The notes: generated by a model from the letters alone, not told the origin. DNA of 64,000 nucleotides from Candidatus Omnitrophota bacterium (GCA_018823795.1 JAHJGZ010000081.1:44325-108324); one strand, 5' to 3'; shown: positions 1,185 to 61,290, counted from the first letter of the stretch. Numbers and translations are program-made.

Positions 1185-1414
1185 ATGAAAATCGTTATTG
1201 GAATAATTATCGGTGGGGCGATCGGGTTTGCAGTCGGTTACTACGGCAAATGACGGCATTAGTTACTGCCGCGATAGCAAAGTAACTAATTTGCCGAAAT
1301 TTGTCCCTTAAGGCAAAGCCTTATAGGGTCAAATGCGTATCAGGTACGTGCCCGATGACGAGCAACCCGATTGTCAGTACTGCCATCGGCGCACTACAAG
1401 AGCTAATGTTTTAG
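1185..1414 (+). pseudogene. Small C-x4-C membrane peptide gene interrupted by an 83-bp hairpin-module insertion
   Basis: MKIVIGIIIGGAIGFAVGYYGK then TGA at 1251-1253. The ORF resumes at 1334 (CVSGTCPMTSNPIVSTAIGALQELMF, stop 1412-1414). It is colinear with the intact paralog at 4510..4668. Confidence 0.75.
1253..1335. mobile_element. 83-bp MITE-like insert made of two hairpin modules, bounded by a direct AAATG repeat
   Basis: AAATG occurs at 1248-1252 and 1331-1335. The insert contains CGGCATTAGTTACT...AGTAACTAATTTGCCG and a CCCTTAAGGC/GCCTTATAGGG hairpin. It is absent from the paralogous gene at 4510. Confidence 0.7.
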
Positions 1415-1540
1415 AAACAGTGTCCCGACTCGTAACCGAGGGCACAATTTTACAGCGATTGTGCCCTACTCGTCGGGATTAATTCGCGCAAATAATTTAT
1501 GTCGTGCAATACACTCCATAAATTATGCGCTCATTAAAGG
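1415..1540. repeat. Hairpin-module cluster (2 modules) ending in the TCATTAAAGG connector
   Basis: Contains the CCCGACTCGTAA..GGGCACAAT/ATTGTGCCC..CGTCGGG hairpin, a TTAATTC connector, and GCGCAAATAATTTATG/CATAAATTATGCGC. It ends with TCATTAAAGG 18 nt before ATG 1549. Confidence 0.75.
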
Positions 1541-1548
1541 AATAAACA

Positions 1549-1749
1549 ATGGCATGGACTGAAGAATCAAAGAAACAAATGGACGAAGCAGCGGTTCAAG
1601 CGAAGGCTGAGTTAGAGAAACATTTTGCTATATGGTCAGCAAAGGACCTTGCTGGCTGGTGGAAGCGGTGGTATCTCAAAGCCGGGCATAAGCGCCTCGG
1701 CCGACTACTTGTCGGTATGGCAAAGCCGGAAAAAGCAGAAGACAAATGA
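1549..1749 (+). CDS. Hypothetical 66-aa protein
   Basis: ORF preceded by AAAGGAATAAACA-ATG, the same RBS context as the gene at 1185. No recognisable family. Its stop TGA lies in an AAATGA connector. Confidence 0.4.
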   Translation: MAWTEESKKQMDEAAVQAKAELEKHFAIWSAKDLAGWWKRWYLKAGHKRLGRLLVGMAKPEKAEDK

Positions 1750-2190
1750 CGACATACTTTAGCGAGTGATAACGAAGCTAAAGTATAAGTCGGAATTAGT
1801 CCCCGCCGCTTTGCTTCGGTTTGAGAAGCAGGCGGGGATAAATGAGGAGATCCATAAAAAGTATTGCAATCGTTTCGAGACGACATACTTTAGCGAGTGA
1901 TAACGAAGCTAAAGTATAAGTCGGAATTAGTCCCCGCCGTTTTACTACGCTTGTCTGCTCAATAGGTACACAAGCGTAGTAGGCGGGGGCAAATGAAAGA
2001 ATTTTTTGACAGCTTTTCGAAACGGGATACGTGACAGCATACTTTACAGAACGAAGTGATGTAAAATATATGCTGAAACATATCCAGCTCCGCTGGACAA
2101 ATGAAGCGTAGCAGGCGGGGGAGAATGAAGAGAGGGAAAAAGTAGAGCCCCCAGAGACATACTACGTGATCAAGACACGTCATGTGTCCG
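1744..2190. repeat. Hairpin-module cluster (about 8 modules) with an internal 62-bp perfect direct repeat
   Basis: CGACATACTTTAGC..GCTAAAGTATAAGTCG, then GAATTAG, then CCCCGCC..GGCGGGG, then AAATGA. 1748-1809 is identical to 1879-1940. Half-modules follow. Confidence 0.8.
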
Positions 2191-2290
2191 GCAGGCGAAC
2201 ATTCTGCAGATAAGTACGAAAGAAAAGGAGTAGGTGCCATGGAACAATATTCCCGTGTGTATATAAAGAAGGTGAGAGGAAATACCCGCG
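2191..2290 (+). repeat. About 95-bp duplicate of the rlmI-like upstream region plus its first 16 codons
   Basis: Roughly 92 percent identical by eye to 4738-4834, including AAGGAG, the ATG (2239 vs 4786) and MEQYSRVYIKK vs MEHYPRVYIKK. The reading frame decays after that. Confidence 0.7.
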
Positions 2291-2411
2291 AGGTAGACGG
2301 AAAAAAAGACTAACCGGTTATACATACAACCGGCGGCAATCAGATCGAGAAATTCACGTACGCGGCTCTCACACGCCGCTATTATAAAAAGGAGGATAGC
2401 CTGTACCAGGT

Positions 2412-4509: not shown

Positions 4510-4668
4510 ATGAAGATCATTATCGGTATTATTATCGGCGCAGCGGTCGGATACGGGATCGGGTATTTTGGTAAATGCGCGTCGGGCACCTGCCCGCTGA
4601 CGAGCAACCCGATCGTGAGCACTGTCATCGGCGCCCTCATCGGCGCATTGGTGGCAAAGGGGGGGTAG
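4510..4668 (+). CDS. Small hydrophobic peptide with a C-x4-C motif (52 aa), intact paralog of 1185..1414
   Basis: MKIIIGIIIGAAVGYGIGYFGKCASGTCPLTSNPIVSTVIGALIGALVAKGG. Read from the sequence, as it is below the ORF-track size cutoff. Confidence 0.6.
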   Translation: MKIIIGIIIGAAVGYGIGYFGKCASGTCPLTSNPIVSTVIGALIGALVAKGG

Positions 4669-4785
4669 TATGGAAGAAAAAGAGAGGTTCGAGAATGAGG
4701 AAGAAAGTCCGTATCATCCGATGAATATTTCGCAAATGCAGGCGAACATGCTGCAGATACGTACGAAAGAAAAGGAGTAGGTGCC

Positions 4786-6015
4786 ATGGAACACTATCCC
4801 CGTGTGTATATAAAGAAGGGGAGAGATATCCCTCTTTTTGCAGGCCACCCATGGATTTTTTCAAAAGCGCTTCAGGAGGAATACCGTCTGCCGGCGGGAG
4901 AACTTGTAGCGGTTTATTCCGCTACCAATGAGCCGTTAGGGATTGGGATGTATAATCCCAAGACATCGATTCGTGTGCGCATGCTGGCGCGCGAGACGGC
5001 CGTTTGTATCGATCACGATTTTTTTATCCGCCGGTTCAGCTCTCTTGACGATGATAAACGGCCGCTCCTGCCGCCTGAAACTACCGGCTACCGCCTTGTG
5101 CACGGCGACGCTGATTATTTTCCCGGGCTCATCGTTGACCGGTACGGTGAGGTATGTGTATTTCAGATCCATACGGCAGGTATGGACCGTATGCGTAACG
5201 AAATTATTGAAGCGCTGCGTACTGCCTTCAGCCCGCGCGCAATCGTTGAACGGTCGGATATTGAGGCGCGGAAGCGGGAAGGGCTCGGCGTATTACCCGT
5301 GGCGGTCCACGAGGGGAGTATTGACGGAGTTGTGCCGTTTACCGAGAACGGCCTTCATTTTTTTGCTGACGTCGTGGACGGGCAGAAGACCGGTTTCTAT
5401 CTTGACCAGCGGAATGCGCGGATGCGCGTGGCAGGCCTTGTGCGGGGCAAAAGCGTGTTAAACCTTTTTAGTTATACCGGTGCTTTGAGTGTCTACGCGG
5501 CGCGCGGAGGGGCGGCGGAGATCGTTATGGTCGATAGTTCGAAAGAGGCGCTCTCACTCGCGCAGCGGCATTTTGAGGCCAATGGGTTTTCCTTTTCCGC
5601 GCGGTATCGATGTATGCACGGGAACGTTTTTGATATACTTCCCCGGCTTATAGAGGAGCAGAAAACATATGATTGTGTTGTCTGCGATCCGCCGGCATTC
5701 GCGAAATCACTGGAGAGTGTCGCGCGCGCGAAGACTGCCTATCTGAGCGCGAATCGGCAGTGCTGCATGCTCCTTCGTGAAGGGGGGATACTCGTGACCA
5801 GTTCCTGTTCAGGCCGTCTCACGCTAGATGATTTTTCCGGGATCATACGTGCCGCGGCGTTTCAGGCAGGCCGCGATCTCCACATTATTGATGTGCTCGG
5901 CCATCCGTATGACCATACCGACCGGCTCTCCTTCGCCGAAGGAAGGTATCTTAAGACCCTCATTGCACGAGCGGTCGGCGGGAATGTATCCTCTCGCCGC
6001 TTTGCTTCGGTTTGA
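4786..6015 (+). CDS. Class I SAM-dependent rRNA methyltransferase, RlmI-like (PUA plus MTase)
   Basis: GFYLDQRNARMRV and VVCDPPAFAKS motifs, 409 aa. The last roughly 10 codons and the stop lie inside a CCGCC/GGCGGGG hairpin module. Confidence 0.8.
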   Translation: MEHYPRVYIKKGRDIPLFAGHPWIFSKALQEEYRLPAGELVAVYSATNEPLGIGMYNPKTSIRVRMLARETAVCIDHDFFIRRFSSLDDDKRPLLPPETTGYRLVHGDADYFPGLIVDRYGEVCVFQIHTAGMDRMRNEIIEALRTAFSPRAIVERSDIEARKREGLGVLPVAVHEGSIDGVVPFTENGLHFFADVVDGQKTGFYLDQRNARMRVAGLVRGKSVLNLFSYTGALSVYAARGGAAEIVMVDSSKEALSLAQRHFEANGFSFSARYRCMHGNVFDILPRLIEEQKTYDCVVCDPPAFAKSLESVARAKTAYLSANRQCCMLLREGGILVTSSCSGRLTLDDFSGIIRAAAFQAGRDLHIIDVLGHPYDHTDRLSFAEGRYLKTLIARAVGGNVSSRRFASV

Positions 6016-6151
6016 GTAGCAGGCGGGGATCAATGATGCTGAACATATACTTTGCCAGCTGGCCGGCAAAGTATTAATTCCCTGCCTACCGGCAGGCAGG
6101 CGGCAAATTAGTTATCTTGCTGCCGCGGCGGTAACTAATGCCGTCATTGAA
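5982..6151. repeat. Hairpin-module cluster (4 modules) spanning the rlmI-like 3-prime end to the next RBS
   Basis: Module order: CTCGCCGC..GGCGGGG, ATCAATGA, GAACATA, TACTTTGCCAGC/GCCGGCAAAGTA, TTAATTC, CCTGCCTACCGGCAGGCAGG, CGGCAAATTAGTTA/TAACTAATGCCG, TCATTGAA. Confidence 0.8.
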
Positions 6152-6159: not shown

Positions 6160-6507
6160 ATGAGACCAAAGAAGACTTTACTTCTCGATAGAAAGACAAT
6201 AAAAAAATTAGTGAGCCTTATCTTAATAGCTCACTTATTAACAGGCTGTTCTTCAATACATAGCCATAGAACTGATGTTTCTCCGCGAGTATATCCGGGT
6301 GTGAAAGAAGATATGCGGGCGATGAAGGGATTCGCGTGTGACGCTGATGAGTGGGGAGGGTTAGGAAGGTCTTTTGCTATTTGGGGTACCTGTGATATTT
6401 TATTTTCATTTGTGGGAGATACGCTTCTCCTCCCGTATGATATGTATAAAGTGCATAAAGAGAAAGACGAAAAGCGAGACGCGTCGTGCGAGTTTCGTCC
6501 TGCGTAA
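6160..6507 (+). CDS. YceK/YidQ-family (DUF1375-like) lipoprotein
   Basis: Lipobox LLTGCSS. YPGVKEDM and FSFVGDTLLLPYDMY match YceK hallmarks. The C-terminal codons lie in a repeat. Confidence 0.75.
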   Translation: MRPKKTLLLDRKTIKKLVSLILIAHLLTGCSSIHSHRTDVSPRVYPGVKEDMRAMKGFACDADEWGGLGRSFAIWGTCDILFSFVGDTLLLPYDMYKVHKEKDEKRDASCEFRPA

Positions 6508-6873
6508 GGCGACGGGGGACGTGTCCCCGCCTGATTCGATTGTGCACTTATTGAGGAGGTAAGCGAATCAAAGCGGCGAGGATACGTGAAGCCTAAACTT
6601 ACGGAACTATGTGACGTAAGTTTACTGGCTGAACATATACTTTGCATGTTAAAACGGGCAAAGTATTAATTCGCGCAAATGACTTACGTCGTCCTACCGG
6701 ACTCCGTAAAGTATGGCCTCATTTACGAGTTTCGTCCTGCGTGAGGCGACGGGGACGTGTCCCCGCCTGATTCGCTTGTGCACTTATTGAGGAGGTAAGC
6801 GAATCAAAGCGGCGAGGATACATTCCGACAGATACTTTAGCATCGCTACTGCTCGCTAAAGTATGTCGTCATG
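6489..6873. repeat. Hairpin-module cluster with a roughly 96-bp direct repeat
   Basis: 6489-6585 and 6726-6821 are near-identical. Between them lies the GATACGTGA-hairpin-GAACATA-hairpin-TTAATTC composite, plus a chimeric hairpin at 6673-6718. Confidence 0.8.
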
Positions 6874-6962
6874 TAAAAAAAGAAACGTTCCCACACTGTT
6901 ATGTGACCCCTTTTCTACTCCGCTTTTGTGTATTAAAGAGAAAAACTGTTACGTAAAATAGC

Positions 6963-10000: not shown

Positions 10001-10971
10001 CCGTGCAGGTGGATGCGTTTTGGGTTGGGGAAAATTATGGAGATGACATAACCCAGGAAGCAGGTTTGACGATCGATTACGATTATTACCAAAATGGCGG
10101 GACATTTGATGCTGGTGAGTATTCTATTTTCGTGGGAGGGGATTGGTTAAGTAATGGAACATTTAACGCGGGAGATTCTACCGTCATATTTAACGGTACC
10201 GACCAACGAATTCATACCTCAACGACTTTCTATAATTTATCGAAACTAACGGGAGGCGGCAACACCTTGACGTTTGAGGCAGAAGAGGAACAAGAAGTCG
10301 ATGGTCTCTTAAAACTTGAAGGTACGAGTTCGACGAGTACCTTAGCATTACGTTCTTCAGAAGAAGATACGCAATGGTCGCTCAATTTACAGGGGACCCA
10401 ATCCCTTAAATATCTCGATGTACAAGATTCAGAAGGGACCGGGCTTGCGTTAGAGGCAACGGACAGTGTTGATTCATTAAATAATACTGGTTGGACTATT
10501 ACTGCCCCAACAACGACAACTACTACTGTAACTCCTCAGACGCAGCAAACGATTAAAAGTAATGTCGTACCGGGGGTTGTTGGCACTACCGGCGGAGGTG
10601 GTACTGGCGGCGGCGGTGTTGGAGGTGACGGTGGCAGTGGCAGTGGTGGCGGTGATTCTGGTGATGGTGGTGACGGTGGCAGTGGTGGCGGTGATTCTGG
10701 TGATGTCGGTGACGGTGGCAGTGGTGGCGGTGATTCTGGTGATGGCGGTGACGGTGGCAGTGGTGGCGGTGATTCCGGTGATGTCGGTGACGGTGGCACT
10801 GGTGGTGGATCTGGCGAACAAGGTAATAATAATCGACGAGGAAGAGGACGTACCCGAAGAAGAAGACATACCCAAGGCGCACAAGGGCCTATTTATGGTA
10901 ATAACTTTGGAAACGTTAATAAAGCTGGTCATATAATCCTGCATCCAGGCGGCGTTGAACTTGTGCCGTAA
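7075..10971 (+). CDS. Two-partner-secretion exoprotein (TpsA) with a haemagglutination-type TPS domain and GLUG repeats
   Basis: Signal peptide, then a TPS-like N-terminus (VLEGNTSILANE..LVNMHGVYIAEAANIDVSSLIAST). About 10 VGGLVGY GLUG-type repeats, a Gly/Asp/Ser tandem repeat, and an Arg-rich tail. The ORF opens at GTG 7045; ATG 7075 has a GGAGG upstream. Confidence 0.85.
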   Translation: MRWCFLKNISVKKCLAICSALVFFIFTLYPYNTFAFDVSVTAGNASIAKDGDTTTVTTDGRAVLEGNTSILANEIVKVVGPNDVLFRDLTGTRTDWLGTLLAEGSVVLVNMHGVYIAEAANIDVSSLIASTLDIQNELFLTNTLSFEKVKGFDAAEILNQAHIDVAQGGYLILLADRVVNQGTLTAYLGSVVLGSGEKMTVSFDERGLVNLVVDKGLAEELKNADGTTKDQIVNSGEVHASGGRIEMTAKLLKTTLSQIVNNEGIIEAARVENNNGVIELVSSGGINLDGTLHATDVNVKAEGTLTLQNGVEIRAERSHLDAPRVELVGEGDQYFWGDMTIHNLYYDVGERDLESTTYPKRLFFEPGRTFTFLDSLHIAGSAGGYNIVTLDSIVKGSLWFIDVVVNDPYLTMIGVGSSVNIGSSILKATPSSNFGNTIGWLLNTVYWTGAVNTLWSNAGNWSGGTPDDQDVVFRIDEGKNRISNMDVADITVDSLDIDDSWQGTINLFGNMTVTNDFNLGDDSTFNETQSFAGDTPYTVTIGGDDNWDGTYNEDVYRVTTADELEGIPGKDLAGQYVLTNDIDASGIVNFIPIGENADEFTGYFEGAGFTISNLTIDRADEQNVGLFGFTDGALIRNVGLTNVDITGGASVGGLVGYLCNGSSIDNSYVSGGTVTGSDEDGENGEYVGGLVGLSYYYTTIDNSYANVTVNGIEYIGGLVGLMYYASSINNSYTTGSVSGSDNVGGLVGYTYYSTIDNAYATGTVDGANSVGGLVGYNYCYSTINKSYATGNVTGTESGVGGLVGFNDDNAEIRDSYAHGTVTGESYVGGLVGYNYNYSSIDNSYATGLVTSDDEDTAGGLVGVDNNSNGVNNSFWDTETTELEYSSGSDDEYGITTAEMKQMYTFIDEDWEPGDVWVNREGVDYPSLYWQHSYWTGLASDENWSTAGNWSGRVVPDDTKIAIFNGEGAENATIDSAVQVDAFWVGENYGDDITQEAGLTIDYDYYQNGGTFDAGEYSIFVGGDWLSNGTFNAGDSTVIFNGTDQRIHTSTTFYNLSKLTGGGNTLTFEAEEEQEVDGLLKLEGTSSTSTLALRSSEEDTQWSLNLQGTQSLKYLDVQDSEGTGLALEATDSVDSLNNTGWTITAPTTTTTTVTPQTQQTIKSNVVPGVVGTTGGGGTGGGGVGGDGGSGSGGGDSGDGGDGGSGGGDSGDVGDGGSGGGDSGDGGDGGSGGGDSGDVGDGGTGGGSGEQGNNNRRGRGRTRRRRHTQGAQGPIYGNNFGNVNKAGHIILHPGGVELVP
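10624..10810 (+). repeat. 39-nt (13-aa) tandem repeat, about 4.5 copies, inside tpsA
   Basis: GGTGACGGTGGCAGTGGTGGCGGTGATTCTGGTGATG(G/T)(T/C) units encoding GDGGSGGGDSGD(G/V). Confidence 0.85.
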
Positions 10972-14314: not shown

Positions 14315-14441
14315 TTCTTCTAGGGACACAATGCCTAATTGAGATACGTACTGTGGTCCCGGAATTCATACAGAAAGTTACTATGGAGTGGTTATAAAAA
14401 TTCCAACCTCGTACTCTGAAATCGTATATACTACTATAATC

Positions 14442-15764
14442 ATGCCTAAACGTAAAAAAAAACACATTTCAAAAATAAGTCTCGCAACCAGTACGGACAT
14501 CCCCGCCGATTTTGATTTCAATGAAGAATTTAAAGCCGCTTTTTCTTTGATGGAAAATACCAATGAGCATATCTTTATTACCGGAAAAGCCGGGACCGGC
14601 AAGTCGACCTTGCTGCAGTATTTCAAGCTCCATACAGAAAAAAAGATAGTGGTCTTAGCGCCGACGGGGGTTGCAGCGATCAAGGTCCACGGCCAAACGA
14701 TACATTCATTTTTTCATCTGCCGCCCCGTTTTATAAAAAAAGAACATGTAAAGCGATTACGGAAAAGTGAGTTGTTGAAACGTATTAATGCAATTGTCAT
14801 AGACGAGGTTTCTATGGTCCGCGCCGATCTTTTAGACGGTATCGATTATTCCCTTCGGGTGAATAGGGGAAGGCCTGATGAGCCTTTTGGCGGCGTGCAG
14901 ATGATCCTGTTTGGTGATCTCTTTCAACTGGCACCGGTCGTAAATAGAGATAGCAAAGACATACTCGCCTCATCATATGACAGCCCGTATTTTTTTAGTG
15001 CTGCGGTGATGGAAAAAATAGATCTTCGCCATCATGAACTGCATAAAATATACCGCCAAAAAGAGGAAACGTTCATTAATCTGCTCAATAAGGTACGCGT
15101 CAAAAATTGTGATGATGATGATTTGGATGCGCTCAAGCAAAGGGTCTGTTCAGACCTTGAGCATGGCTCCGGCGGTGTCATTACGCTTACGACGACCAAT
15201 AGTGATGCCTATACCATTAACACCGATTGTTTAAAAAGGATCGGTGCCGATGAGTTTCGCTATACGGCTACGATAACGGGAACGTTCGATAAAGGGGCCT
15301 ATCCGACCGAAGAGTGTTTGATCCTCAAAAAGAATGCACAGGTGATGTTAATAAAAAATGATCCTCAGAGACGATGGGTGAACGGAACGCTTGGTGAAAT
15401 TGAAGCCTTGAATGAATATTCTATTATGGTAAAAATAAAAGATACGACCTATGAAGTAGAGAAAGTACAATGGGAGAAGATCGCCTATATATTTAATCAT
15501 CATAAACAAAAAGTGGAGGAAAAAGTTGTCGGCTCATTTGAACAATATCCTTTAAAGTTGGCATGGGCGATAACTATCCATAAAAGCCAGGGACAAACGT
15601 TTGATAATGTTATCATTGATATGGGGTACGGAGCGTTTACCCATGGGCAGACCTATGTGGCATTAAGCCGGTGCACCAGTTTTAAAGGGGTTCGATTAAA
15701 GAAGCCGGTCATTTTTAGTGATATTATTTTTGACAACCGTATTTATGAATACTGCAATAAATGA
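14442..15764 (+). CDS. pif1: Pif1/RecD-like SF1B DNA helicase
   Basis: FITGKAGTGKST (Walker A), IVIDEVSMV, FGDLFQLAPV, ITIHKSQGQTFD, YVALSRC. The ORF opens at 14388 and ATG 14442 was chosen. The stop TGA lies in an AAATGA connector. Confidence 0.85.
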   Translation: MPKRKKKHISKISLATSTDIPADFDFNEEFKAAFSLMENTNEHIFITGKAGTGKSTLLQYFKLHTEKKIVVLAPTGVAAIKVHGQTIHSFFHLPPRFIKKEHVKRLRKSELLKRINAIVIDEVSMVRADLLDGIDYSLRVNRGRPDEPFGGVQMILFGDLFQLAPVVNRDSKDILASSYDSPYFFSAAVMEKIDLRHHELHKIYRQKEETFINLLNKVRVKNCDDDDLDALKQRVCSDLEHGSGGVITLTTTNSDAYTINTDCLKRIGADEFRYTATITGTFDKGAYPTEECLILKKNAQVMLIKNDPQRRWVNGTLGEIEALNEYSIMVKIKDTTYEVEKVQWEKIAYIFNHHKQKVEEKVVGSFEQYPLKLAWAITIHKSQGQTFDNVIIDMGYGAFTHGQTYVALSRCTSFKGVRLKKPVIFSDIIFDNRIYEYCNK

Positions 15765-15937
15765 GGCCATACTTTATGGAGTCCTATAGGACGACATAAA
15801 GTATAGGGCCGAATTTATCCTCGCCGCTTTGCTACGCTTGTCTGTCTAAGACGCACACAAGCGTAGCTGGCGGGGATAAATGAAAAGACTTTTGCCGCCG
15901 CTTTGCTTCGGTTTGAGAAGCTGGCGGGGGCAAATGA
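15758..15937. repeat. Hairpin-module cluster (3 modules)
   Basis: Module order: AAATGA, GGCCATACTTTATGG..CATAAAGTATAGGGCC, GAATTTA, two CGCCGC..GGCGGGG hairpins, CAAATGA. Confidence 0.8.
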
Positions 15938-15962: not shown

Positions 15963-16220
15963 ATGAAGAAGACGCCTTCCATGCCCGCCCGCAATGATAC
16001 TAAGGCTAAAAAAAATAAAGACCCGTTGCATGGAGTTACGCTCGAGTGTATGGTGAAGCGTTTACAAGAATTGTATGGCTGGGAGGAGTTAGGGCGAAGA
16101 ATAAAAATAAACTGTTTTAATCATGATCCCAGTATACAGTCGAGCCTCACATTCTTACGAAGGACTCCGTGGGCCCGGAAAAAAGTAGAAAGGTTGTATG
16201 TAAATGAAGACACAACTTAG
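15963..16220 (+). CDS. VF530/DUF2132-family small DNA-binding-fold protein
   Basis: [61 protein letters not shown]. The last 5 codons are read from a hairpin module. Confidence 0.7.
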
Positions 16221-16607
16221 CGAACGAAGTGAAGCTAAGTTGTGTGTCTGAATTTACCCAGCACCCAGCAGAACAAATATGTATTATGTTTATGTTTTAA
16301 AAAATATTAAAGATAAAAATCTTTATTATTGATATACGCGTGATTTAAGTCGTCGTCATAAAGAACATAATACGAATAAAAAAAGTGGGAGTTGGTTTAT
16401 TGCGAAGCGCATAAATTAGAAATCGACGCTCGGAAGAGAGAAAAAAGATTAAAACAATATGGCCAAGCACGCAGTGGTCTTAAATCACACATTAAGGAAT
16501 CGCTGAGATAGTACAACTGGGTGCTGGGTTAATTCCTGCCTGCCGGCAGGCACACAGTAACTTATGTCGTTCATCCTGAACTTCCATAAGTTACGTGTTC
16601 ATTAAAG
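16201..16607. repeat. Hairpin-module cluster in which one module carries a GIY-YIG pseudogene as its loop
   Basis: Module order: AAATGA, GACACAACTTAGC/GCTAAGTTGTGTGTC, GAATTTA, CCCAGCACCCAG (16257-16268), the ORF, CTGGGTGCTGGG (16517-16528), TTAATTC, CCTGCCTGCCGGCAGG, ACAGTAACTTATG/CATAAGTTACGTGT, TCATTAAAG. Confidence 0.8.
16279..16511 (+). pseudogene. Degraded GIY-YIG (URI-domain, COG2827-like) nuclease gene
   Basis: MYYVYVLKNIKDKNLYY, then TGA at 16330, then YTRDLSRRHKEHNTNKKSGSW. After a 1-nt frame change near 16395 it reads VYCEAHKLEIDARKREKRLKQYGQARSGLKSHIKESLR and ends at 16511. Confidence 0.75.
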
Positions 16608-16618
16608 AGAGTATTCTT

Positions 16619-17575
16619 ATGCGGGTAATCGTTAGAAATAGTTTATTTGCTGTAATCATATTGATACTTTTTTTCTTCGGCCTGGAAGTAATAAGTAGAT
16701 TGCTACCTTTCGATTATAGGGAAGTTCATAACGGTTATACGTTAAATGATCCGTATTTGTTTTGGAAACCACATTATTTTAATGATTTGCTGAATGAAGA
16801 AAGTAAACAAGCAAACGAATACAGGATTGTAGCGTTAGGAGATTCCTGCACAGCTGGTGAAGGATGTGACGGAGAAACCTATGTTTACCTTTTAAAGAAG
16901 TTGTTACAGGAGCATATGCCGAGAAAGAATTTTAAAACGTACAACTTAGGAGTTGTCGGGTATTCGAGTTTTCAAGCACTACGGACACATAAGAGATATG
17001 GCACCTATTTGAAACCGAATGTAATCATCATATATGTAGCCTGGAATGATATATGGAGAAGTTATATAAGTGATAAACAATTGAGTAAACATTTATCGAG
17101 GTTTCATATTCTCAATAAACTGCATATTATTAAACTGATGAGGAAATGCCTGACAAAAGTTAAGCCGTATCCGAACTTTCCACTTGTTCATCGTGTCACA
17201 CGGGAAGAGATGCGAAAGAACATATTAGAAATGATTCAGATAGCGCACAATCAAAATGCACATACGATAATTATTGTTCCGCCGTTTTTATATGATCAAG
17301 AAGGAAATAAACCGTATAAAGATGACATAAAACCTTATTTAGACACTATTCGTTCTATTCGTACAGATAATAACGTAACTCTACTTGACCTGCAGGGATA
17401 CTTTGCTAACAAGACGGATATGTTTGCTATTAACCACGAAGAAGATTATATCTACAGCACAAAAGATGGGGTAGATACGATTCATCCAAGTGCAAAAGGG
17501 CATCGATGTATAGCGAATGAATTATACAAGGTCGTTTGTAGTATATTGCCGCCTGCTGGCAGGCAGGCGAAGTGA
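16619..17575 (+). CDS. SGNH/GDSL-family hydrolase with an N-terminal membrane anchor
   Basis: VALGDSCTAGEG (block I) and DTIHPSAKGH (block V). ATG 16619 was chosen because upstream codons belong to a repeat. The C-terminal PPAGRQAK and stop lie in a CCTGC..GGCAGG module. Confidence 0.75.
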   Translation: MRVIVRNSLFAVIILILFFFGLEVISRLLPFDYREVHNGYTLNDPYLFWKPHYFNDLLNEESKQANEYRIVALGDSCTAGEGCDGETYVYLLKKLLQEHMPRKNFKTYNLGVVGYSSFQALRTHKRYGTYLKPNVIIIYVAWNDIWRSYISDKQLSKHLSRFHILNKLHIIKLMRKCLTKVKPYPNFPLVHRVTREEMRKNILEMIQIAHNQNAHTIIIVPPFLYDQEGNKPYKDDIKPYLDTIRSIRTDNNVTLLDLQGYFANKTDMFAINHEEDYIYSTKDGVDTIHPSAKGHRCIANELYKVVCSILPPAGRQAK

Positions 17576-17776
17576 TGTAAAGCATAAGTATGAACATATA
17601 TTTTTCCAGCTAGCTGGCAGAGAAGTCAGAGTGGACAAAATTAATATTCGTTTCATTTACCCCGTCTCGAAAGCGGCGGCAAAGCCCTTTCAGGGATTTG
17701 CCGCCCTCGACGGGATTAATTCGCGCAAATGACTTACGTCGTCTGACGACTTCCGTAAGTCATGCGCTCATTAAAG
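17549..17776. repeat. Hairpin-module cluster (4-5 modules, some degraded)
   Basis: Module order: CCGCCTGCTGGCAGGCAGGCG, AAGTGA, a degraded TACTTT..CAGC palindrome, TCATTTA, CCCCGTCTCG..CGACGGG (17660-17714), ATTAATTC, GCGCAAATGACTTACG/CGTAAGTCATGCGC, TCATTAAAG. Confidence 0.8.
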
Positions 17777-17787
17777 TGATCTAACAT

Positions 17788-18156: not shown

Positions 18157-18226
18157 AAAATCTGCTATAATCTTCTTACCAAGGGAACTAAAGTTTACGT
18201 TTTTCAGTCTAATCATAATGTGATAT

Positions 18227-18344
18227 AAATGACGACATGAATTACGGAATATAATGACGTAATTCATCTGTCGGAATTTATCCCATCTCGAGTTGCAAAT
18301 CCTTGAAAAGGTTTTGCAACCGCTTTACGAGATGGGATACATGA
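18227..18344. repeat. Hairpin-module cluster (2 modules), an inverted counterpart of 17653-17776
   Basis: Module order: AAATGA, CGACATGAATTACG/CGTAATTCATCTGTCG, GAATTTA, TCCCATCTCG..CGAGATGGGA (18281-18337), TACATGA. Confidence 0.8.
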
Positions 18345-18371
18345 ATTAAAAAAACCACTCCACAAAGGATT

Positions 18372-25495: not shown

Positions 25496-25591
25496 CGACA
25501 TATTTTAGCGAGTGATAACAAAGCTAAAATATAAGTCGGAACTTATCCTCGCCGCTTTGCTTCGGTTTGAGAAGCAGGCGGGGATCAGTGA
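25489..25591. repeat. Hairpin-module cluster (2 modules)
   Basis: Module order: CAGTGA, CGACATATTTTAGC/GCTAAAATATAAGTCG, GAACTTA, CTCGCCGC..GGCGGGG, ATCAGTGA. Confidence 0.8.
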
Positions 25592-37530: not shown

Positions 37531-37604
37531 TGCCCGGTAGTGTAATGGTAACACAACGGCTTTTGGAGCCGTCTTTCGTGGTTCGAATCCACGCCGGGCA
37601 GCCA
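37531..37604 (+). tRNA. tRNA-Gln (anticodon TTG) with encoded CCA
   Basis: Cloverleaf read by hand: acceptor TGCCCGG/CCGGGCA, anticodon stem ACGGC/GCCGT with loop TTTTGGA, T-arm GTGGTTCGAATCCAC, 3-prime GCCA. Confidence 0.9.
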
Positions 37605-47660: not shown

Positions 47661-50039
47661 ATGTTTCAAAACAGGATGTTACACACTATGGGAAAAAGGG
47701 AAAAGAAAAAAATATTGTACATCATCGGCTTTGCCATCGTATGCATGGGTGCATATCTTTGTATGGGCAGTAACGTATGTGCACAACAGACGGAAGAGTC
47801 GGAGCAGGAAGATTACCTGCCGGAAGAGGACTATCTACCCTATGTGTCTGACGTGGTGGTTACGGGAAACTACATTGTCAGTTCAAACACTATTATCAAT
47901 AAGATCCAAACGCAAAAAGGTAATGAATTATCCCACGATGTTATTAATGAGGATATCAAACGGCTGTATGGTACCGGCTATTTTCAAGATGTACGATTTG
48001 ATTTAATCCCTGACGGCACTAATTTTAGCGTGGTTGTTGTGGTTGATGAAAAGTCGGTAGTGGAAAAAATTATTATTCAGGGAAATGAGACAATTAAAGA
48101 GACTACTTTACAGAAAGTGCTGGGAAGTAAGGAAGGACAAATTTTAGATCCTCATGTCTTAAAAGGAGATATTGCGAAGATTCGGAAAAAATATCTTGAT
48201 AAAGGCTTTAAATTTGTATCGATAGATTCGGATATCCAGGTCGACAAACGCACCAAAGCAGCGACGGTGACTATCATTATTGATGAAGGACAAAAATTTA
48301 AGATTACCGACATTCGTTTTGATGGGGCAACTGCCTTTAAGACGCACTTCTTGAAAAAACGGATGAAGACCAAAAAGAGGGCTCTGTGGCTTTGGCGTAC
48401 AGGTGTTTTTAAAGAGAAAAACTTTCAAGCTGACATAGAACGTCTTACCTACCTCTATCAAAAGGAAGGATATTTAGACGTTGCCATGGCGCCGGAATAT
48501 GAGTATGCCAAAAAAGATAATACAATGGTTATTGTCATTGTTGTTGATGAAGGGAAACAGTACATTACCGGGGATGTTCAAATTGTGGGGAATAGAATCT
48601 TTGTCGAAAGTGAAATTTGGGGAAAGCTTGAAATGCTTCCTGGTGAAGTCTACAGTCAAGTGCGCATGCAAAATGAACTTGATTCCTTGCGCCGGTTTTA
48701 TTTTGAGCGTGGGTACATTAATGCACGTATTGATCCTGAGACAAATTTGAATAAGGCAACTGGCCGGGTCGATATTAAGTATAAAATTATCGAAGGTGAT
48801 TTGTATTTTGTTGACAAGGTGAGCATACGCGGAAATACAAAAACAAAAGATACGGTGATACGACGCGAATTGCGTGTGCGTCCCGGAGAACAATTTGATG
48901 GTGAAAAACTTGAGTATTCAAAGACGCGTTTAAATAATTTGGGATTTTTTGAAGAAGTTTCCTATGAGACAGAACCGGGCACTGCCGCTGATAAACGCGA
49001 TGTTGTTTTTAATGTGACAGAAAAACAGACCGGGGAACTATCCTTTGGCGCGGGGATTAGTTCAATCGACCAATTTATGGGATTTTCAGAAATTGCGCAA
49101 CGCAATTTTGATATTATGAAGTGGCCACGCTTAACCGGCGGGGGGCAGAGTGTGTCGTTGAAGGCCAGAGTGGGAAGCGTTACCCGTGATCTCGATTTTA
49201 CTTTTGTTGAACCGTACATTTTAAATAAGCCGGTGTCTATGGGAATTAACGTGTACAACTGGGAACGCGAAGGGAATAATTTAGATTTTGATACCCGGCG
49301 GCGTGGTATCGGCCTTACCTTTGGGAAAAACTTTTCAGATCGCGTGAAAGGATTTGTTGGCTACACCATTGAAAGTGTCAAATTAACTGATATCTCCGCT
49401 GATGCACATGCTGATGTACTAGCATCAGGAGAGGAAAATACGTTGAGTCGGGTAAAAACAGGGATTGTGTATGACAGCCGTGATAATGTCTTTACGCCGA
49501 CTGCAGGATGGTATCTGAGTTCGTCAGCGGAAATGATCGGCGGCGTTGTCGGTGGGGATCAGGATTATTACAATCTCCAAGCCGGTGCAACAAAATTTTA
49601 CAGTTTCAAAAAAGATCATGTTTTTGAATTCAGGAATAGAGTTGGTTTTACGAATGACTTTGGCGATTCCTCTCAGGTTCCGGTGTTTGACCGTTTTTTT
49701 GCTGGCGGTTTGGGAACCGTGCGCGGGTACAATTACCGGCGTGTTGGACCAACGGGGGGTGGTGATCCTATCGGTGGAGAATCCCTCTTTTTAAGTAGTC
49801 TTGAATACGTTTTTCCACTTATTGAAAATTTTAAAGGTACGGCATTTATCGATGTAGGACATGTTAATTATGAATTTTTTAAGATGGATACAGGTGATAT
49901 TGCCGTCAGTATTGGTCCGGGACTGCGGGTGAATACACCCCTGGGGCCGATAACGTTTTATTACGGATTTCCCGTTGCTAATAAAGATGATAAAGACAAA
50001 AATGGGAGATTTGAATTTAATTTGAGCCGTGGATTCTAA
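47661..50039 (+). CDS. bamA: Outer-membrane protein assembly factor BamA (Omp85)
   Basis: Five POTRA-like repeats and a C-terminal barrel ending FEFNLSRGF. Followed by skp. Confidence 0.9.
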   Translation: MFQNRMLHTMGKREKKKILYIIGFAIVCMGAYLCMGSNVCAQQTEESEQEDYLPEEDYLPYVSDVVVTGNYIVSSNTIINKIQTQKGNELSHDVINEDIKRLYGTGYFQDVRFDLIPDGTNFSVVVVVDEKSVVEKIIIQGNETIKETTLQKVLGSKEGQILDPHVLKGDIAKIRKKYLDKGFKFVSIDSDIQVDKRTKAATVTIIIDEGQKFKITDIRFDGATAFKTHFLKKRMKTKKRALWLWRTGVFKEKNFQADIERLTYLYQKEGYLDVAMAPEYEYAKKDNTMVIVIVVDEGKQYITGDVQIVGNRIFVESEIWGKLEMLPGEVYSQVRMQNELDSLRRFYFERGYINARIDPETNLNKATGRVDIKYKIIEGDLYFVDKVSIRGNTKTKDTVIRRELRVRPGEQFDGEKLEYSKTRLNNLGFFEEVSYETEPGTAADKRDVVFNVTEKQTGELSFGAGISSIDQFMGFSEIAQRNFDIMKWPRLTGGGQSVSLKARVGSVTRDLDFTFVEPYILNKPVSMGINVYNWEREGNNLDFDTRRRGIGLTFGKNFSDRVKGFVGYTIESVKLTDISADAHADVLASGEENTLSRVKTGIVYDSRDNVFTPTAGWYLSSSAEMIGGVVGGDQDYYNLQAGATKFYSFKKDHVFEFRNRVGFTNDFGDSSQVPVFDRFFAGGLGTVRGYNYRRVGPTGGGDPIGGESLFLSSLEYVFPLIENFKGTAFIDVGHVNYEFFKMDTGDIAVSIGPGLRVNTPLGPITFYYGFPVANKDDKDKNGRFEFNLSRGF

Positions 50040-50422
50040 ATGAGGCCATACTTTATGGAGTCATTGGGGACGACATAAAGTATATGGCCGAATTTATACT
50101 TTGCCAGCTAGCTGGCAAAGTATTTAATCGCGTGGCTCGGTTGAATCCAGCACAGCTGGATAAATGTATCCCCACACTAATTGTATGAAAAGAGATTTAC
50201 AAGAATTGGTGTGGGGGTACATGTCTGTATACACCAAAACCCGATTAGACAATGTTTTTGTATGCTGTTTAACGGGATACGTGAAGCCCAAATTTACGGA
50301 GCAGAATGCGACGTAAGTTTGTTGGCTGAACATATACTTTGCCAGCTGACTGGCAAAGTATTAATTCGACCATATCACTTACGTTGTCATCGTGACACCG
50401 TAAGTAATGGTCTCATTAAAGG
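50037..50422. repeat. Hairpin-module cluster (about 8 modules) filling the entire bamA-skp spacer
   Basis: TAAATGA, then GGCCATACTTTATGG.., GAATTTA, the perfect palindrome TACTTTGCCAGCTAGCTGGCAAAGTA, and CCCCACAC(T)AATTG/CAATTGGTGTGGGG. The GATACGTGA composite follows (50276-50367), then GACCAT..ACTTACG/CGTAAGTAATGGTC and TCATTAAAGG. Confidence 0.85.
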
Positions 50423-58980: not shown

Positions 58981-59871
58981 GTGTTGTTTAAGGCTCGACG
59001 ATATCGAATTGATTTTTCAAAAAAAAACAAAGTCCTCATTGTGGGGATTTTAAATATCACTCCGGATTCTTTCTCAGAAGGGAAGCGTTATTTTAAGAAA
59101 AACGCTGCGTACCGACGAGCGCTTGAGATTGAAGCTGAAGGGGCAGCTATTATTGATATCGGTGCTGAATCGACGCGTCCTGGTTCAGCAGGCATATCAG
59201 CATCTGAAGAACTAAAAAGAATTATTCCTGTTTTAGACAAAGTGGTGCGTAAAATCAAAATTCCGATTTCGATTGATACGACCAAATCAGATGTTGCATA
59301 TGAATGTCTCCGGAGAGGCGCCGCAATTATTAATGACATAAGCGGGCTTACGAAAGACCCTGCGATGGCATCAGTGGTTAAAAAGTTTAAGGCTGGCCTC
59401 GTCATCATGCATATGCGCGGAGAACCAGCAACAATGCAGAAGTATACGGCATATAAAGACTGTGTCAGAGAGGTGATCAAGGAATTGAGGGGCCGCATGC
59501 AGATTGCACGTTCTGCGGGAGTGGCATTTGATCACATTATTGTTGATCCCGGCATTGGGTTTTCGAAGACGGTAAAACAAAATTTAGAGATTATTAGGAA
59601 TATAAAAAAGTTTCATGTTTTGAAAAGGCCTCTTCTTATTGGGCCTTCACGGAAATCGTTTATTGGAAAAGTTTTGAATCGTACGGTGAACGAGCGTTTG
59701 GCAGGGACCTTAGCGTCGGTGGCAGGTGCTGTTGATGGTGGTGCCGAGATGATACGCGTACACGATGTACGGGAAACGAACGATTTTTTAACGATGAGAA
59801 AAACAATAAATGAAGCCAAAAGTTGCGGAACCTGCCTGCCGGTAGGTAGGCGAAGTGATCGTAACTTTTAG
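58981..59871 (+). CDS. folP: Dihydropteroate synthase
   Basis: GILNITPDSFS, IIDIGAESTRPG, DPGIGF, RVHDV. The last roughly 14 codons read through a CCTGCCTGCCGG module. Confidence 0.9.
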   Translation: MLFKARRYRIDFSKKNKVLIVGILNITPDSFSEGKRYFKKNAAYRRALEIEAEGAAIIDIGAESTRPGSAGISASEELKRIIPVLDKVVRKIKIPISIDTTKSDVAYECLRRGAAIINDISGLTKDPAMASVVKKFKAGLVIMHMRGEPATMQKYTAYKDCVREVIKELRGRMQIARSAGVAFDHIIVDPGIGFSKTVKQNLEIIRNIKKFHVLKRPLLIGPSRKSFIGKVLNRTVNERLAGTLASVAGAVDGGAEMIRVHDVRETNDFLTMRKTINEAKSCGTCLPVGRRSDRNF

Positions 59872-59991
59872 GGCTGAATTTATCCCCACACCAATTGTGT
59901 GAGGGATATTTACGCAGAATTTGAAATAATTGGTGTGGGGATTTAATTCGCACATATGGTTTATGTCGTAAAAGGCACGTGCAGCATGTGC
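59831..59991. repeat. Hairpin-module cluster (3-4 modules)
   Basis: Module order: CCTGCCTGCCGGTAGGTAGG, CGAAGTGA, GAATTTA, TCCCCACACCAATTG/CAATTGGTGTGGGGA (59883-59941), TTTAATTC, GCACAT..ATGTGC. Confidence 0.75.
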
Positions 59992-60146
59992 GAAACGAGC
60001 CCCGTTAGAGATGTGGTGGCGGCAAGATAAACGTAGTATAGGTTAATTTCAAAAGACATAAAATTATTACGATGATATAAAAATACGGAAACGTTTCGTA
60101 CAAGAATGCTGCGTTTCCTATCTCTAACGGGGTAAAGGAGTTTTAC

Positions 60147-60893
60147 ATGTCAGGACATTCACGATGGAGTAGCATAAAACATAAAAAAGGGGCAGCCGAT
60201 GCTAAACGGGGTAAGTTATTTACAAAACTTATCAAGGCTATTACCGTTGCGGCCCGTCAAAGTGGTGGAGATCCGAATGCAAATCCGGCGTTACGGACTG
60301 CTATCACCTCAGCAAAAAATGCAAATATGCCAAATGATAATATTGACCGGGCAATAAAGAAGGGAACCGGTGAGTTAGAAGGGATTACCTATGAAGAAGT
60401 GTTTTATGAAGGATATGGTCCTAAAGGCGTGGCCATTTACGTTCAATGTTTGACCGATAATAAAAATAGAACGACGGCTGAGGTGCGAAACCTTTTTTCT
60501 AAAAATAACGGGAATATGGCTGGTGTTGGCTGTGTAGCATGGCTTTTTGAATCAAAAGGGTTAATTGTCGTTACAGCGGATGAGATAAAGGAAGATAGAT
60601 TGATGGAAATCGCTATTGATGCAGGGGCAGAGGATTTTAGTAAAGATAAAGACGTTTTTGAAATCATTACTGCACCGCAGGATTTTGAAAATATTAGAAA
60701 GACAATAGCTGATAATGCTATTCCGATACAATCGTCAGATTTAACGTATATTCCAAAAAATGAAATACCGCTTACCGTGGATGAAGCGAAACGGGTTCTT
60801 AAATTAGTAGAAATACTTGAAGATCATGAAGATATACAAAATGTGTATGCGAATTTTGAGATTCCTGATGAAGTGATGAACGATATTGAATAG
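60147..60893 (+). CDS. yebC: YebC/PmpR-family transcriptional regulator
   Basis: MSGHSRWSSIKHKKGAADAKRGKLFTKL. Upstream of ruvCAB. Confidence 0.9.
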   Translation: MSGHSRWSSIKHKKGAADAKRGKLFTKLIKAITVAARQSGGDPNANPALRTAITSAKNANMPNDNIDRAIKKGTGELEGITYEEVFYEGYGPKGVAIYVQCLTDNKNRTTAEVRNLFSKNNGNMAGVGCVAWLFESKGLIVVTADEIKEDRLMEIAIDAGAEDFSKDKDVFEIITAPQDFENIRKTIADNAIPIQSSDLTYIPKNEIPLTVDEAKRVLKLVEILEDHEDIQNVYANFEIPDEVMNDIE

Positions 60894-60916
60894 TATAACA
60901 AGAGAGGGTATATACC

Positions 60917-61234
60917 ATGAATAAGGAAATGATTATTGCAAAAATACAACGATGGCAGGCAGAACTGTCTGAAATAGTAGCGACCCTGAATGGGGAGCAA
61001 AAAAGTGGTCCGATCCTTGATATTTTAAAAGAGCGGGCAGGCGATATTAATCACCTGATTGAGGCTATACAAGATAAAAGTTTTATTACACCCGGGGATG
61101 TTAAATTTGAACCGCAACCCGTTCTTGATGAGATTGAGGAGAAAGTGAAGAAAGTTAAAGCAGGGGTTAAAAAGATCAAGAAACTTTCAAAGGAAAAGAA
61201 AAGAATTATTAGGGATCTCGAGGAATATATATAA
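60917..61234 (+). CDS. Hypothetical coiled-coil protein
   Basis: ORF with a good RBS (GAGAGGG). No recognised family. Confidence 0.4.
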   Translation: MNKEMIIAKIQRWQAELSEIVATLNGEQKSGPILDILKERAGDINHLIEAIQDKSFITPGDVKFEPQPVLDEIEEKVKKVKAGVKKIKKLSKEKKRIIRDLEEYI

Positions 61235-61290
61235 ATGAAGCTGTGATTTATGTCGCTCTGTAAGCTCCATAAATCATGCGCTTATTAATC
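61231..61290. repeat. Single hairpin module spanning a stop codon to the ruvC RBS
   Basis: Module order: TAAATGA, AGCTGTGATTTATG/CATAAATCATGCGC, TTATTAATC. GTG 61302 lies 20 nt after the start of the last connector. Confidence 0.7.

Follow-up and report, generated by a model that had tools for sequence, protein, structure and literature searches.

This analysis concerns a stretch of 64,000 nt (the window) from a Candidatus Omnitrophota genome (GCA_018823795.1, contig JAHJGZ010000081.1, 44325-108324), whose intergenic regions carry chains of short hairpins. The chains look like piled-up short non-autonomous palindromic elements, all derived from one family of minimal units resembling insertion sequences (ISs), and with a probability of roughly 0.6 they are mobile hairpin elements belonging to a unit that bears a GIY-YIG nuclease gene. 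The full-length unit of ~0.4 kb would consist of (A/T)AATGA, a hairpin termed T1, GAATTTA, a CCCAGC… arm, a gene for a 76-aa GIY-YIG protein resembling the Ssn nucleases, a …GCTGGG arm, TAAATTC, an inverted T1 and TCATT. This reading is built on lineage-specific insertion, one pair of empty and filled sites, duplicated flanks, structural constraint and recurrent linkage to GIY-YIG genes, all of which the sequences show.

Hairpin clusters in the window

The window has a G+C content of ~44% and belongs to a diderm bacterium; nearly all genes lie on the plus strand and the GC skew is positive throughout. Strict hairpins (stem of at least 10 bp with at most one mismatch) numbered 53 in the window, whereas 8-12 were counted in dinucleotide shuffles and three syntenic relatives had 14-18 per 64 kb, in agreement with an earlier note on this DNA which had described a modular hairpin mosaic similar to bacterial interspersed mosaic elements (BIMEs). 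By self-BLAST 16 repeated intervals of ~2.3-2.4 kb were obtained, almost entirely non-coding. With modules recognised by structure only included, 17 clusters spanning ~3.4 kb were counted, which amounts to 5.4% of the window and about one third of its 9.7 kb of non-coding DNA and comes close to the earlier estimate of at least 16 clusters, ~3.5 kb and ~5%. The absence of clusters from the housekeeping block at 33-50 kb was likewise confirmed, as no T1 match lies between 32318 and 50036. For single modules folded as single-stranded DNA (ssDNA) the z-scores lay between -6 and -7.4. The intergenic chains of hairpins in this Omnitrophota genome are real and represent lineage-specific insertions.

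At least eight stem families had been proposed, and all those named were located where they had been placed, but they collapse to two architectural classes, here called class I (T1) and class II. The mosaics are made of four kinds of pieces, namely one decayed full unit (16200-16603), ORF-less composites of the order T1(+)-T3-T1(-) (ORF, open reading frame), doublets of T1 and a class II hairpin, and fragments or solo hairpins. Complete composites lie at 6582-6726 and 50277-50420 and partial ones at 26000-26090 and 32237-32318. They account for the conserved order GATACGTGA, hairpin, GAACATA, TACTTTGCC palindrome, TTAATTC of the earlier note, which was found at 6582-6672, 26000-26088 and 50277-50367 and inverted at 32230-32318. 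The doublets, nine in plus and three in minus orientation, are without terminal inverted repeats, starting with NNNC ATAC… and finishing with …GGCGGGG. A chimeric module had also been reported and was recovered at 6665-6726, where the T1 model scored 37.6 bits compared with ~66 bits in typical copies; together with the 131-nt difference described below it bears out the suggested recombination between modules.

The window was compared with the metagenome-assembled genome (MAG) GCA_043813055.1 of NCBI ('Candidatus Omnitrophica bacterium', contig JBDRLM010000049.1 of 111 kb), the BamA protein of which is 100% identical to that of the window. The sequence of the MAG was read over ~81 kb, comprising the window, 7.7 kb upstream and 9.4 kb downstream. 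In comparison to this record the window has one extra 131-nt module unit at ~1748-1878 (equivalently 1813-1943), composed of T1, a short T2 and a 35-nt spacer and bounded by a 65-nt exact repeat. It also has 39 nt fewer in the coding tandem repeat of a GLUG-motif gene (~10630-10805), and a few single-nucleotide differences. These differences reflect either population polymorphism or repeat collapse in one assembly. The independently assembled Logan contigs of SRR2544004 were 99.8-100% identical to the window, modules included, and one of them (L027) terminates within the cluster after bamA, from which it follows that the repeats are real and that assemblies of short reads are interrupted by them. 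An origin of the modules as artefacts of assembly or chimerism in the MAG, to which such contig ends inside clusters and the 131-nt difference could have pointed, is refuted by the agreement of the Logan contigs and by the occurrence of the same module grammar in unrelated samples. An Rfam scan of the window at the gathering score returned the tRNA at 37531-37601 as its sole match, and blastn searches against plasmids and phages returned no match.

Architecture and covariation of the T1 hairpin

The T1 hairpin takes in the GACATACTTTAGC, GGCCATACTTTATGG, GCGCAAATGACTTACG and CGGCAAATTAGTTA families of the earlier note. Its 5′ part comprises an (A/T)AATGA or ACGTGA flank, a 4-bp outer stem and a 10-bp inner stem with an invariant TTA, its loop of 11-16 nt has G first and A last, and in its 3′ part the return strands of the inner and the outer stem are separated by a 2-nt bulge, which has no counterpart on the 5′ side, and followed by GAA(T/C)(T/A)TA. 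A covariance model built on 20 copies matched 25 copies in the window (15 plus, 10 minus) and two further copies in the flanks, and gave no match in ~109 kb of control loci. The presence of T1 in both orientations relative to transcription argues for a role at the DNA level and not at the RNA level.

Among 22 aligned copies, which were first found by a structural scan favouring paired copies, 93.2% of the cells were paired, compared with 67.8% in shuffles and 26-35% with slid partners. Changes on both sides were present in 15 of 20 pairs, and the number of doubly changed cells was 101 compared with 27.6 expected, a value reached by none of 500 shuffles. Within the 14 hairpin stem pairs, 83 compensatory (doubly changed) cells stand against six wobble or unpaired ones. 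The bias of the structural scan is small, because the model added only five imperfect copies, and since there are ~9-10 distinct stem variants the covariation count reflects several independent lineages and not one. The constraint on structure over sequence that had been proposed from paired stem changes is hence well founded. The fixed asymmetric bulge, the invariant bases, the compensatory changes and the ssDNA fold z-scores support the suggestion that T1 carries the hairpin signature of a DNA recognised by a protein; its perfect stems could be kept either by selection for recognition or by templated correction within the hairpin.

Class II hairpins and connectors

Class II hairpins start with CC(C) directly after GAATTTAT and end with GG(G) ahead of ATAAAT, with conserved outer stems around a variable interior. 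T2 is composed of CCYCGCC-GCTTT, one of four inner hairpins and GGCGGGG, T7 and T9 start with CCCnnCTCG…, T10 with CCCCACAC…, and T8 reads CCAGC-nnn-GCTGG; T4 and T6 are also members of this class. The T3 palindrome, TACTTTG-CCAGC-nn-GCTGG-CAAAGTA, has the T8 core at its apex. The apex sequence of T3 and T8, CCAGC-N2-4-GCTGG, occurs six times in place of the 0.08 times expected and is the core of the arms that bracket each hairpin-nested GIY-YIG ORF. In the ORF-less T1-T3-T1 composites, CCAGC-nn-GCTGG at the T3 apex is probably a remnant at the place of the gene.

The connector vocabulary described earlier was found at the module junctions, but the connectors are not free linkers, as they can form the two sides of a T1 basal stem. 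In the predicted minimum-energy fold ATAAAT-GA and GA-ATTTAT pair to a 6-bp basal stem with a GA/GA internal loop. Covariation between the ACGTGA and GAACATA connectors was dropped as a proof of this pairing, for it may reflect one subfamily copied with its flanks. The AAATGA-type connector appears to be at least partly duplicated target sequence.

In the genome contigs collection a scan for the T3 palindrome TACTTTGCCAGNNNNCTGGCAAAGT gave two chance matches only, and matches in metagenome contigs were rejected as an unrelated long palindromic repeat of other samples. In the latter contigs (L003-L024; JGI metagenomes Ga0209628/9 and JGI20166J26741) the 25-nt core of T3 lies by coincidence at the centre of a long and highly repeated palindromic element at contig ends, which looks like a transposon of another organism.

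The GIY-YIG pseudogene and its homologues

The single decayed full unit contains a GIY-YIG pseudogene, whose reading frame is broken once by a frameshift and once by a TGA codon in the place of Gly in the YIG motif (16330-16332). Its rejoined product of 80 aa matched PF01541 (E=1.2e-10, 41.9 bits), and tblastn with homologues gave E=3e-18 and 1e-11 in two frames with no other score in 81 kb. The pseudogene is located between 12-bp perfect inverted repeats (CCCAGC…GCTGGG), outside of which T1(+) and T1(-) are found. The earlier note had stated that the window holds no transposase and no RAYT, the tyrosine transposase associated with repetitive extragenic palindromic (REP) sequences. None was indeed found, but the cluster at 16.2-16.6 kb does contain a gene of the mobile-element type. 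Neither a RAYT/Y1 transposase nor any other mobile-element gene was detected in the ~81 kb read, where ORFs of 120 aa or more were examined in the window and called genes in the 17 kb of flanks. Reading of the TGA as Gly (genetic code 25) was rejected on the grounds that other genes here stop at TGA and that a frameshift is present in addition; its position could be a hint of transfer from a lineage in which UGA encodes Gly.

The homologues, which are 71-89 aa long, have kept the Y, Y-G, R, H and E residues intact, and their identity is at most 63%. The CCCAGC…GCTGGG arms enclose four intact homologues of 76-78 aa from three further independent metagenomic sources, and in two of these sources T1 is present as well, with the outer context AAATGA-T1-GAATTT(T)A in contigs L037/L038 and L042, all three matched by the T1 model. 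With the pseudogene counted, arms are found at five of six GIY-YIG genes and an adjoining T1 at four of six (T1 model scores of 23-70 bits). The reconstituted 80-aa product and the homologues are single-domain GIY-YIG proteins within the ~70-100 aa expected for Ssn, and the gene is flanked on both sides by multi-copy hairpin repeats, as in Ssn systems, at 16200-16603, at both L037 genes and in L042.

The GIY-YIG family comprises at least 7,732 matches, part of which go under the names Candidatus Omnitrophota or Patescibacteria; at 50% identity it falls into 14,243 clusters (E ≤ 1e-3). Many members lie on contigs that are 0.5-1.5 kb long. The nuclease is not represented by any NCBIfam model, the PDB searched by sequence gave only weak UPF0213 matches (E=0.004), and a scan of viral contigs with the alignment of the nuclease returned no matches other than N-terminal ones in larger phage proteins.

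A PIF1-like helicase gene (14388-15764; PF05970, E=8e-32) is located directly upstream of the cluster region holding the GIY-YIG unit. This is probably a coincidence, because no such gene lies beside the L037 or L042 genes.

Evidence for insertion

An empty and a filled site are provided by a segmental duplication, 1185-2278 versus 4510-4825, each copy of which has a DUF6132 gene. The gene of the 4510 copy is intact; that of the 1185 copy is split at AAATG by a 79-nt doublet, which adds an in-frame TGA, so that the filled site reads GGCAAATG/A…GGGTC/AAATGCG compared with GGTAAATGCG in the intact copy. The same duplication also holds a methyltransferase leader with the first 40 nt of the gene (2191-2278 versus 4738-4825, 94% identity), and its upstream copy is filled with ~780 nt of modules and a 66-aa ORF (1550-1747) of no known family.

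Relatives with a BamA identity of 62-69% keep the gene order, and their bamA-skp spacer has 33-136 nt compared with 393 nt in the window; likewise, the spacer after folP has ~30 nt in the relatives and 275 nt here. In three genes (the methyltransferase 4786-6015, the GDSL lipase 16595-17575 and folP) the last codons and the stop are supplied by modules, which overlap the 3′ ends at 5993-6028, 17551-17575 and 59806-59871, and folP is ~10 residues longer here than in the relatives.

Duplicated flanks were seen at several doublets. ATAAATGA stands on both sides of the doublet 15757-15875, and a deviant 11-mer, GATCAGTGACG, on both sides of 25496-25583, where the left copy contains the native stop codon of the upstream ORF. 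Across the 12 doublets the two flanks of one doublet matched each other at a mean of 4.9 of 8 positions, compared with 4.3 of 8 for flanks of other doublets (permutation p ~0.026). The strand bias of the doublets was not used as a sign of an ssDNA mechanism, since an initial count of seven out of seven became nine to three once minus-oriented doublets were included. Taken at the level of sequence, the insertion data support mobility of the modules; the mechanism set out below is inferred.

Proposed mechanism and points against it

In the proposed mechanism the hairpins would extrude in ssDNA, and the nuclease would recognise T1 by its shape together with a small number of fixed positions, namely TGA in the flank, TTA/TAA in the stem and the G and A that delimit the loop, and would nick the conserved TGA-containing flank. 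Host replication or repair would subsequently copy the unit into TGA-containing, AT-rich sites. As such sites are offered by stop codons and by resident connectors, chains would grow and the same 6-8-nt words would come to stand at every junction. The role of the GIY-YIG nuclease as the mobilising enzyme, its ssDNA substrate and the position of the cut are put forward with much less confidence than the membership of the mosaics in a GIY-YIG-bearing unit.

Several points weigh against the reading of the mosaics as mobile elements of a GIY-YIG unit. The sole nuclease copy seen in the ~81 kb of the MAG is a pseudogene, and among recorded sequences there is no intact close paralog with more than 63% identity; the part of the MAG read is itself limited to these ~81 kb. 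GIY-YIG enzymes hydrolyse DNA and perform no strand transfer, so that insertion must rely on host functions. The suggested flank duplication is based on few cases, and a second AAATGA-like flank is absent from three of the 12 doublets. The hairpin context is absent from one of five independent homologue loci (L036), and the association could also arise from a GIY-YIG gene that homes into pre-existing hairpins as a separate parasite. The published SRM repeat motif of the Ssn systems, HGTCWYN(0-2)YYVSBRHN(0-5)WNVSBRGN(0-2)RNCYNB, had no match in the window (0.2 expected) and none in L037, compared with four in a Shinella positive control. Finally, membership of the protein in the Ssn clade (cd10448) is putative, a comparison with an SRM-flanked Shinella protein serving as a proxy.

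Alternative explanations

The homing scenario is part of an alternative in which REP/BIME-type repeats are moved by a RAYT (Y1/HUH) encoded elsewhere in the genome, the GIY-YIG gene is a selfish homing-type gene invading CCAGC…GCTGG loops, and T3 and T8 are empty targets instead of deletion derivatives. The BIME-like layout of inverted hairpins with fixed linkers would fit such a scheme, a RAYT could lie beyond the ~81 kb read, the arms of the stem that enclose the ORF vary from locus to locus as if different hairpins had been invaded, and the starts and stops of the ORF abut the arms. It is nevertheless regarded as unlikely, given that the window and flanks hold no Y1 transposase, that the 5′ GT[AG]G which marks REP sequences is absent from T1, and that not just the invaded hairpin but also T1 accompanies the GIY-YIG gene, as seen for three genes of two unrelated sources. 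A similarly low probability is assigned to hairpins which, irrespective of where they came from, are maintained by the host for a function of their own, be it as stabilisers or terminators of mRNA 3′ ends or as places for the restriction of incoming or recombining ssDNA by an Ssn-type nuclease, an explanation that is compatible with the GIY-YIG unit. Near-perfect hairpins despite sequence divergence, the location of many of them precisely on stop codons or shortly before ribosome-binding sites, and the precedent in Neisseria (PMC11893778) speak for it. On the other side, the hairpins are absent in syntenic relatives, occur in both orientations relative to transcription and show no T-run like that of intrinsic terminators; one doublet has destroyed a copy of a gene, and the local nuclease gene is dead.

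Ordinary miniature inverted-repeat transposable elements, moved in trans by the DDE transposase of an IS elsewhere, would explain target duplications of 6-9 bp and thus the direct repeats at the doublet flanks that resemble them. The doublets have no terminal inverted repeats, however, no IS was found in 81 kb, the plasmid and phage searches were without match, and both the covarying T1 architecture and the GIY-YIG linkage would be left unexplained, so that this origin appears very improbable.

Beyond the preferred reading as mobile hairpin elements of a GIY-YIG-bearing unit, a wider and clearly more tentative proposal can be made. The mosaics may represent an unrecognised class of minimal transposable elements of Omnitrophota and Patescibacteria, ~0.4 kb in the autonomous and 60-145 nt in the non-autonomous form, which do without a transposase and are mobilised by a 76-aa Ssn-like nuclease nested in a hairpin. 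They would insert at TGA words with a 6-11-bp duplication, and the targets would possibly be picked by pairing of an ATTTAT tail with ATAAAT. If true, transposition of Ssn/SRM-type systems would for the first time be documented by direct genomic evidence. Descriptions of Ssn nucleases date back no further than 2025, and for the question of whether and how their hairpin repeats spread as mobile DNA the locus offers a compact, dissectable case from an uncultured phylum, with a full unit, ORF-less derivatives, an empty/filled pair and duplicated flanks within 64 kb. The intact enzyme genes of other samples could be synthesised and tried on defined T1 oligonucleotides, and new pairs of hairpin and enzyme would widen the set of site-specific ssDNA nucleases. 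Because the family is large and its members are often found on very short contigs, elements of this kind may often lie unnoticed behind assembly breaks in genomes of Omnitrophota and Patescibacteria.

Feature inventory and other repeats of the window

The modules are compiled in Table 1, together with the genes referred to above and the homologous GIY-YIG loci.

Table 1. Hairpin clusters and associated genes in window coordinates, followed by GIY-YIG loci of other samples
Feature	Coordinates	Strand	Content
Disrupted DUF6132 paralog	1185-1414	+	N-terminal part 1185-1251; resumes in sequence at 1331, ends at 1414
Cluster 1	1246-1335	+	T1-type (1246-1304) and class II T6 (1304-1328); CAAATG on both sides; inserted in DUF6132 paralog
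Cluster 2	1424-1540	-	Doublet: T7 (1424-1477), ATTAATTC, T1 (1478-1538), TCATTAAAG
Cluster 3	1742-2122	+	T1 (1742-1800) and T2 (1801-1837); T1 (1873-1927) and long T2 (1932-1989); T1 (2027-2083) and T8 CCAGCTCCGCTGG (2083-2097), then T2 3′ fragment; NCBI record without one 131-nt unit
Intact DUF6132 gene, 52 aa	4510-4668	+	PF19628; 'empty site' GGTAAATGCG
Cluster 4	5993-6151	.	T2 (5993-6028), T3 palindrome (6048-6073), T4 (6081-6096), T1-type (6093-6151, minus)
Cluster 5	6489-6876	.	Class II hairpins 6489-6581 and 6726-6817 (97-nt repeat) enclosing ORF-less composite of T1 (6582-6638, +), T3 (6638-6665) and chimeric T1 (6665-6726, -); closes with T1 (6818-6876, -)
Cluster 6	15757-15937	+	T1 (15757-15818) and T2 (15819-15875), ATAAATGA on both sides; then solo T2 (15895-15930)
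Cluster 7, full-length IS-like composite	16200-16603	+	AAATGA, T1 (16200-16257, +), GAATTTA, arm CCCAGCACCCAG (16257-16268), GIY-YIG pseudogene, arm CTGGGTGCTGGG (16517-16528), TTAATTC, T4 (16535-16550), T1 (16550-16600, -), TCATTAAAG
GIY-YIG (Ssn-like) nuclease pseudogene	16279-16511	+	Three-frame translation, PF01541, tblastn
Clusters 8 and 9	17548-17778	.	T4 (17551-17564) in 3′ end of gene 16595-17575; T3-like palindrome (17599-17624); class II T9 (17660-17714), ATTAATTC, T1 (17715-17775, -), TCATTAAAG
Cluster 10	18225-18345	+	T1 (18225-18281) and T9 (18282-18336); flanks ATAAATGA and ATACATGA
Cluster 11	25485-25593	+	T1 (25488-25546) and T2 (25547-25583); identical GATCAGTGACG at 25487-25497 and 25583-25593
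Cluster 12	25946-26250	.	T7 (25946-25999), T1 (26000-26056, +), T3 (26056-26081), reversed T2 (26098-26155), T4 (26164-26179), T1-type (26176-26234, -), T2 fragment
Cluster 13	27464-27545	+	T1 (27464-27521), T8 CCAGCTCCGCTGG (27521-27535) and TAAATTC
Cluster 14	32092-32386	.	T1 (32092-32153, +) and T2 (32154-32201); T3 (32237-32262), T1 (32262-32318, -), T2 (32319-32366)
Cluster 15, bamA-skp spacer	50036-50420	.	T1 (50036-50097, +), T3 (50097-50122), T8 (50146-50160), T10 CCCCACAC… (50170-50217); ORF-less composite of T1 (50277-50335, +), T3 (50335-50360) and T1 (50360-50420, -)
Cluster 16	59806-59965	.	T4/T1-like module over folP 3′ end (59806-59883), T10 CCCCACACCAATTG… (59884-59940), TTTAATTC, truncated T1
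Cluster 17	61230-61292	.	Divergent solo T1 upstream of ruvC; 25.3 bits, E=0.002; also in Logan contig L033
L037 gene 1 (L038 is the same locus; two ENA samples)			GAATTTTA, CCCCACACCCAGC, ORF, GCTGGGTGTGGGG, TTCAATTC, T1(-), TCATTGA
L037 gene 2			AAATGA, T1(+), GAATTTGA, CCCAGCCCTAATTT, ORF, AAATTAGGGCTGGG, TTTAATTC
L042 (different run)			Full arrangement, T1 on both sides of GIY-YIG gene
L039-41 (one locus, three runs)			GAACACTTA, CCCAGCACTTATTTT, ORF, AAAATAAGTGCTGGG; CCCAGC…GCTGGG arms only
L036			GIY-YIG homologue without CCCAGC…GCTGGG arms and without T1

A separate repeat, unrelated to the T1/T2 modules, is present in two intergenic regions (28742-28835 and 36031-36125), where purine-rich AAAGGA(T)AAAGGA runs and the complement TTTATC(T/C)TTTATC are arranged around a shared GCTTTTGACC core. 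Moreover, two long palindromes (ATTGTACTACGTAG… at 28857-28887 and TACTGCCACGACTGCCACATGTGGCAGTCGTGGCAGTA at 28992-29029), both perfect and with stem lengths of 14 and 17 bp, are located upstream of a DUF1016/nuclease-like gene at 29052 and look operator-like. A very small and extremely basic ORF (MPCGRKRKKKKMNKHKRKKKLRLNRHKKKLR) was found at 32423-32520, directly behind the 32.1-32.4 kb cluster.

Comparison with known systems

The closest analogue is the Ssn family of single-domain GIY-YIG nucleases of ~94 aa with their NTS/SRM hairpin repeats (Chenal et al., Nat Commun 2025, PMC11893778). Ssn proteins bind these repeats only in single-stranded form and make their cut immediately upstream of the hairpin, within an oriented word that is conserved; ssn genes are flanked by their own repeats in a layout that the authors called identical to an IS, with mobility left as a hypothesis, and for the Neisseria NTS a restriction of incoming or recombining ssDNA by Ssn was proposed (PMC11893778). 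The statement of the earlier note that the architecture is not a described element thus holds for this variant only. Shared features are the tiny single-domain GIY-YIG gene between inverted hairpin repeats in an IS-like layout and the amplification of the repeats, each an oriented 5′ word with a hairpin, in intergenic DNA. T1, an oriented word plus hairpin outside the gene on both sides, is an analogue of the SRM and not a match to its published definition. The family protein P0123 is 39% identical over 67 aa to the SRM-flanked Shinella protein (pairwise E=2e-12, database-wide tblastn E=3e-4). In contrast to Ssn, the protein described here has 76 aa instead of 94 and no C-terminal …NPDWRDL tail, the ORF lies between two arms of one hairpin, the repeats form multi-family mosaics, the hosts are Omnitrophota and Patescibacteria, and the window provides insertion evidence in the form of an empty/filled site and duplicated flanks. 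A textbook SRM-ssn-SRM unit was seen on plasmid pShin-01 of Shinella sp. HZN7 (L043, 595.3-596.0 kb), where a 94-aa GIY-YIG gene is enclosed by two inverted pairs of CGTCATCCTCGGGCTTGACCCGAGGATCCAT.

REP/BIME systems are a looser analogue than Ssn/SRM. REP, BIME and REPIN sequences resemble the modules as extragenic imperfect palindromes in many copies, with inverted pairs, fixed linkers and structural constraint, and a domesticated-looking single gene flanked by its repeats is shared with REP/RAYT. They differ in that the 5′ flank of T1 is (A/T)AATGA or ACGTGA, without GT[AG]G in the consensus, in that the associated gene encodes a GIY-YIG hydrolase and not an HUH transposase, and in that flank duplications were seen and no RAYT was found in the ~81 kb read.

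Elements of the IS200/IS605 group have subterminal hairpins that are recognised as ssDNA and make no target duplication. With these and with palindrome-associated transposable elements the modules share tiny size, insertion next to a short specific word and non-autonomous derivatives made of hairpins only, but no Y1 TnpA was found here, the ends are mutually inverted and there is an apparent target duplication. Pneumococcal BOX elements and the nested small dispersed repeats of cyanobacteria are likewise modular units, with repeats inserted into or next to repeats, and are not known to have a linked nuclease gene. Integron attC sites were rejected, as the T1 consensus is without RYYYAAC/GTTRRRY cores and the neighbours are syntenic housekeeping genes, and so was a 'TGA + hairpin' arrangement resembling selenocysteine insertion sequences, because the TGA that follows bamA is not in frame and because hairpins occur in both orientations. 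The repeat family with its two-class grammar, the ORF nested between the arms of one hairpin, the Omnitrophota and Patescibacteria hosts and the genomic evidence for insertion are new.

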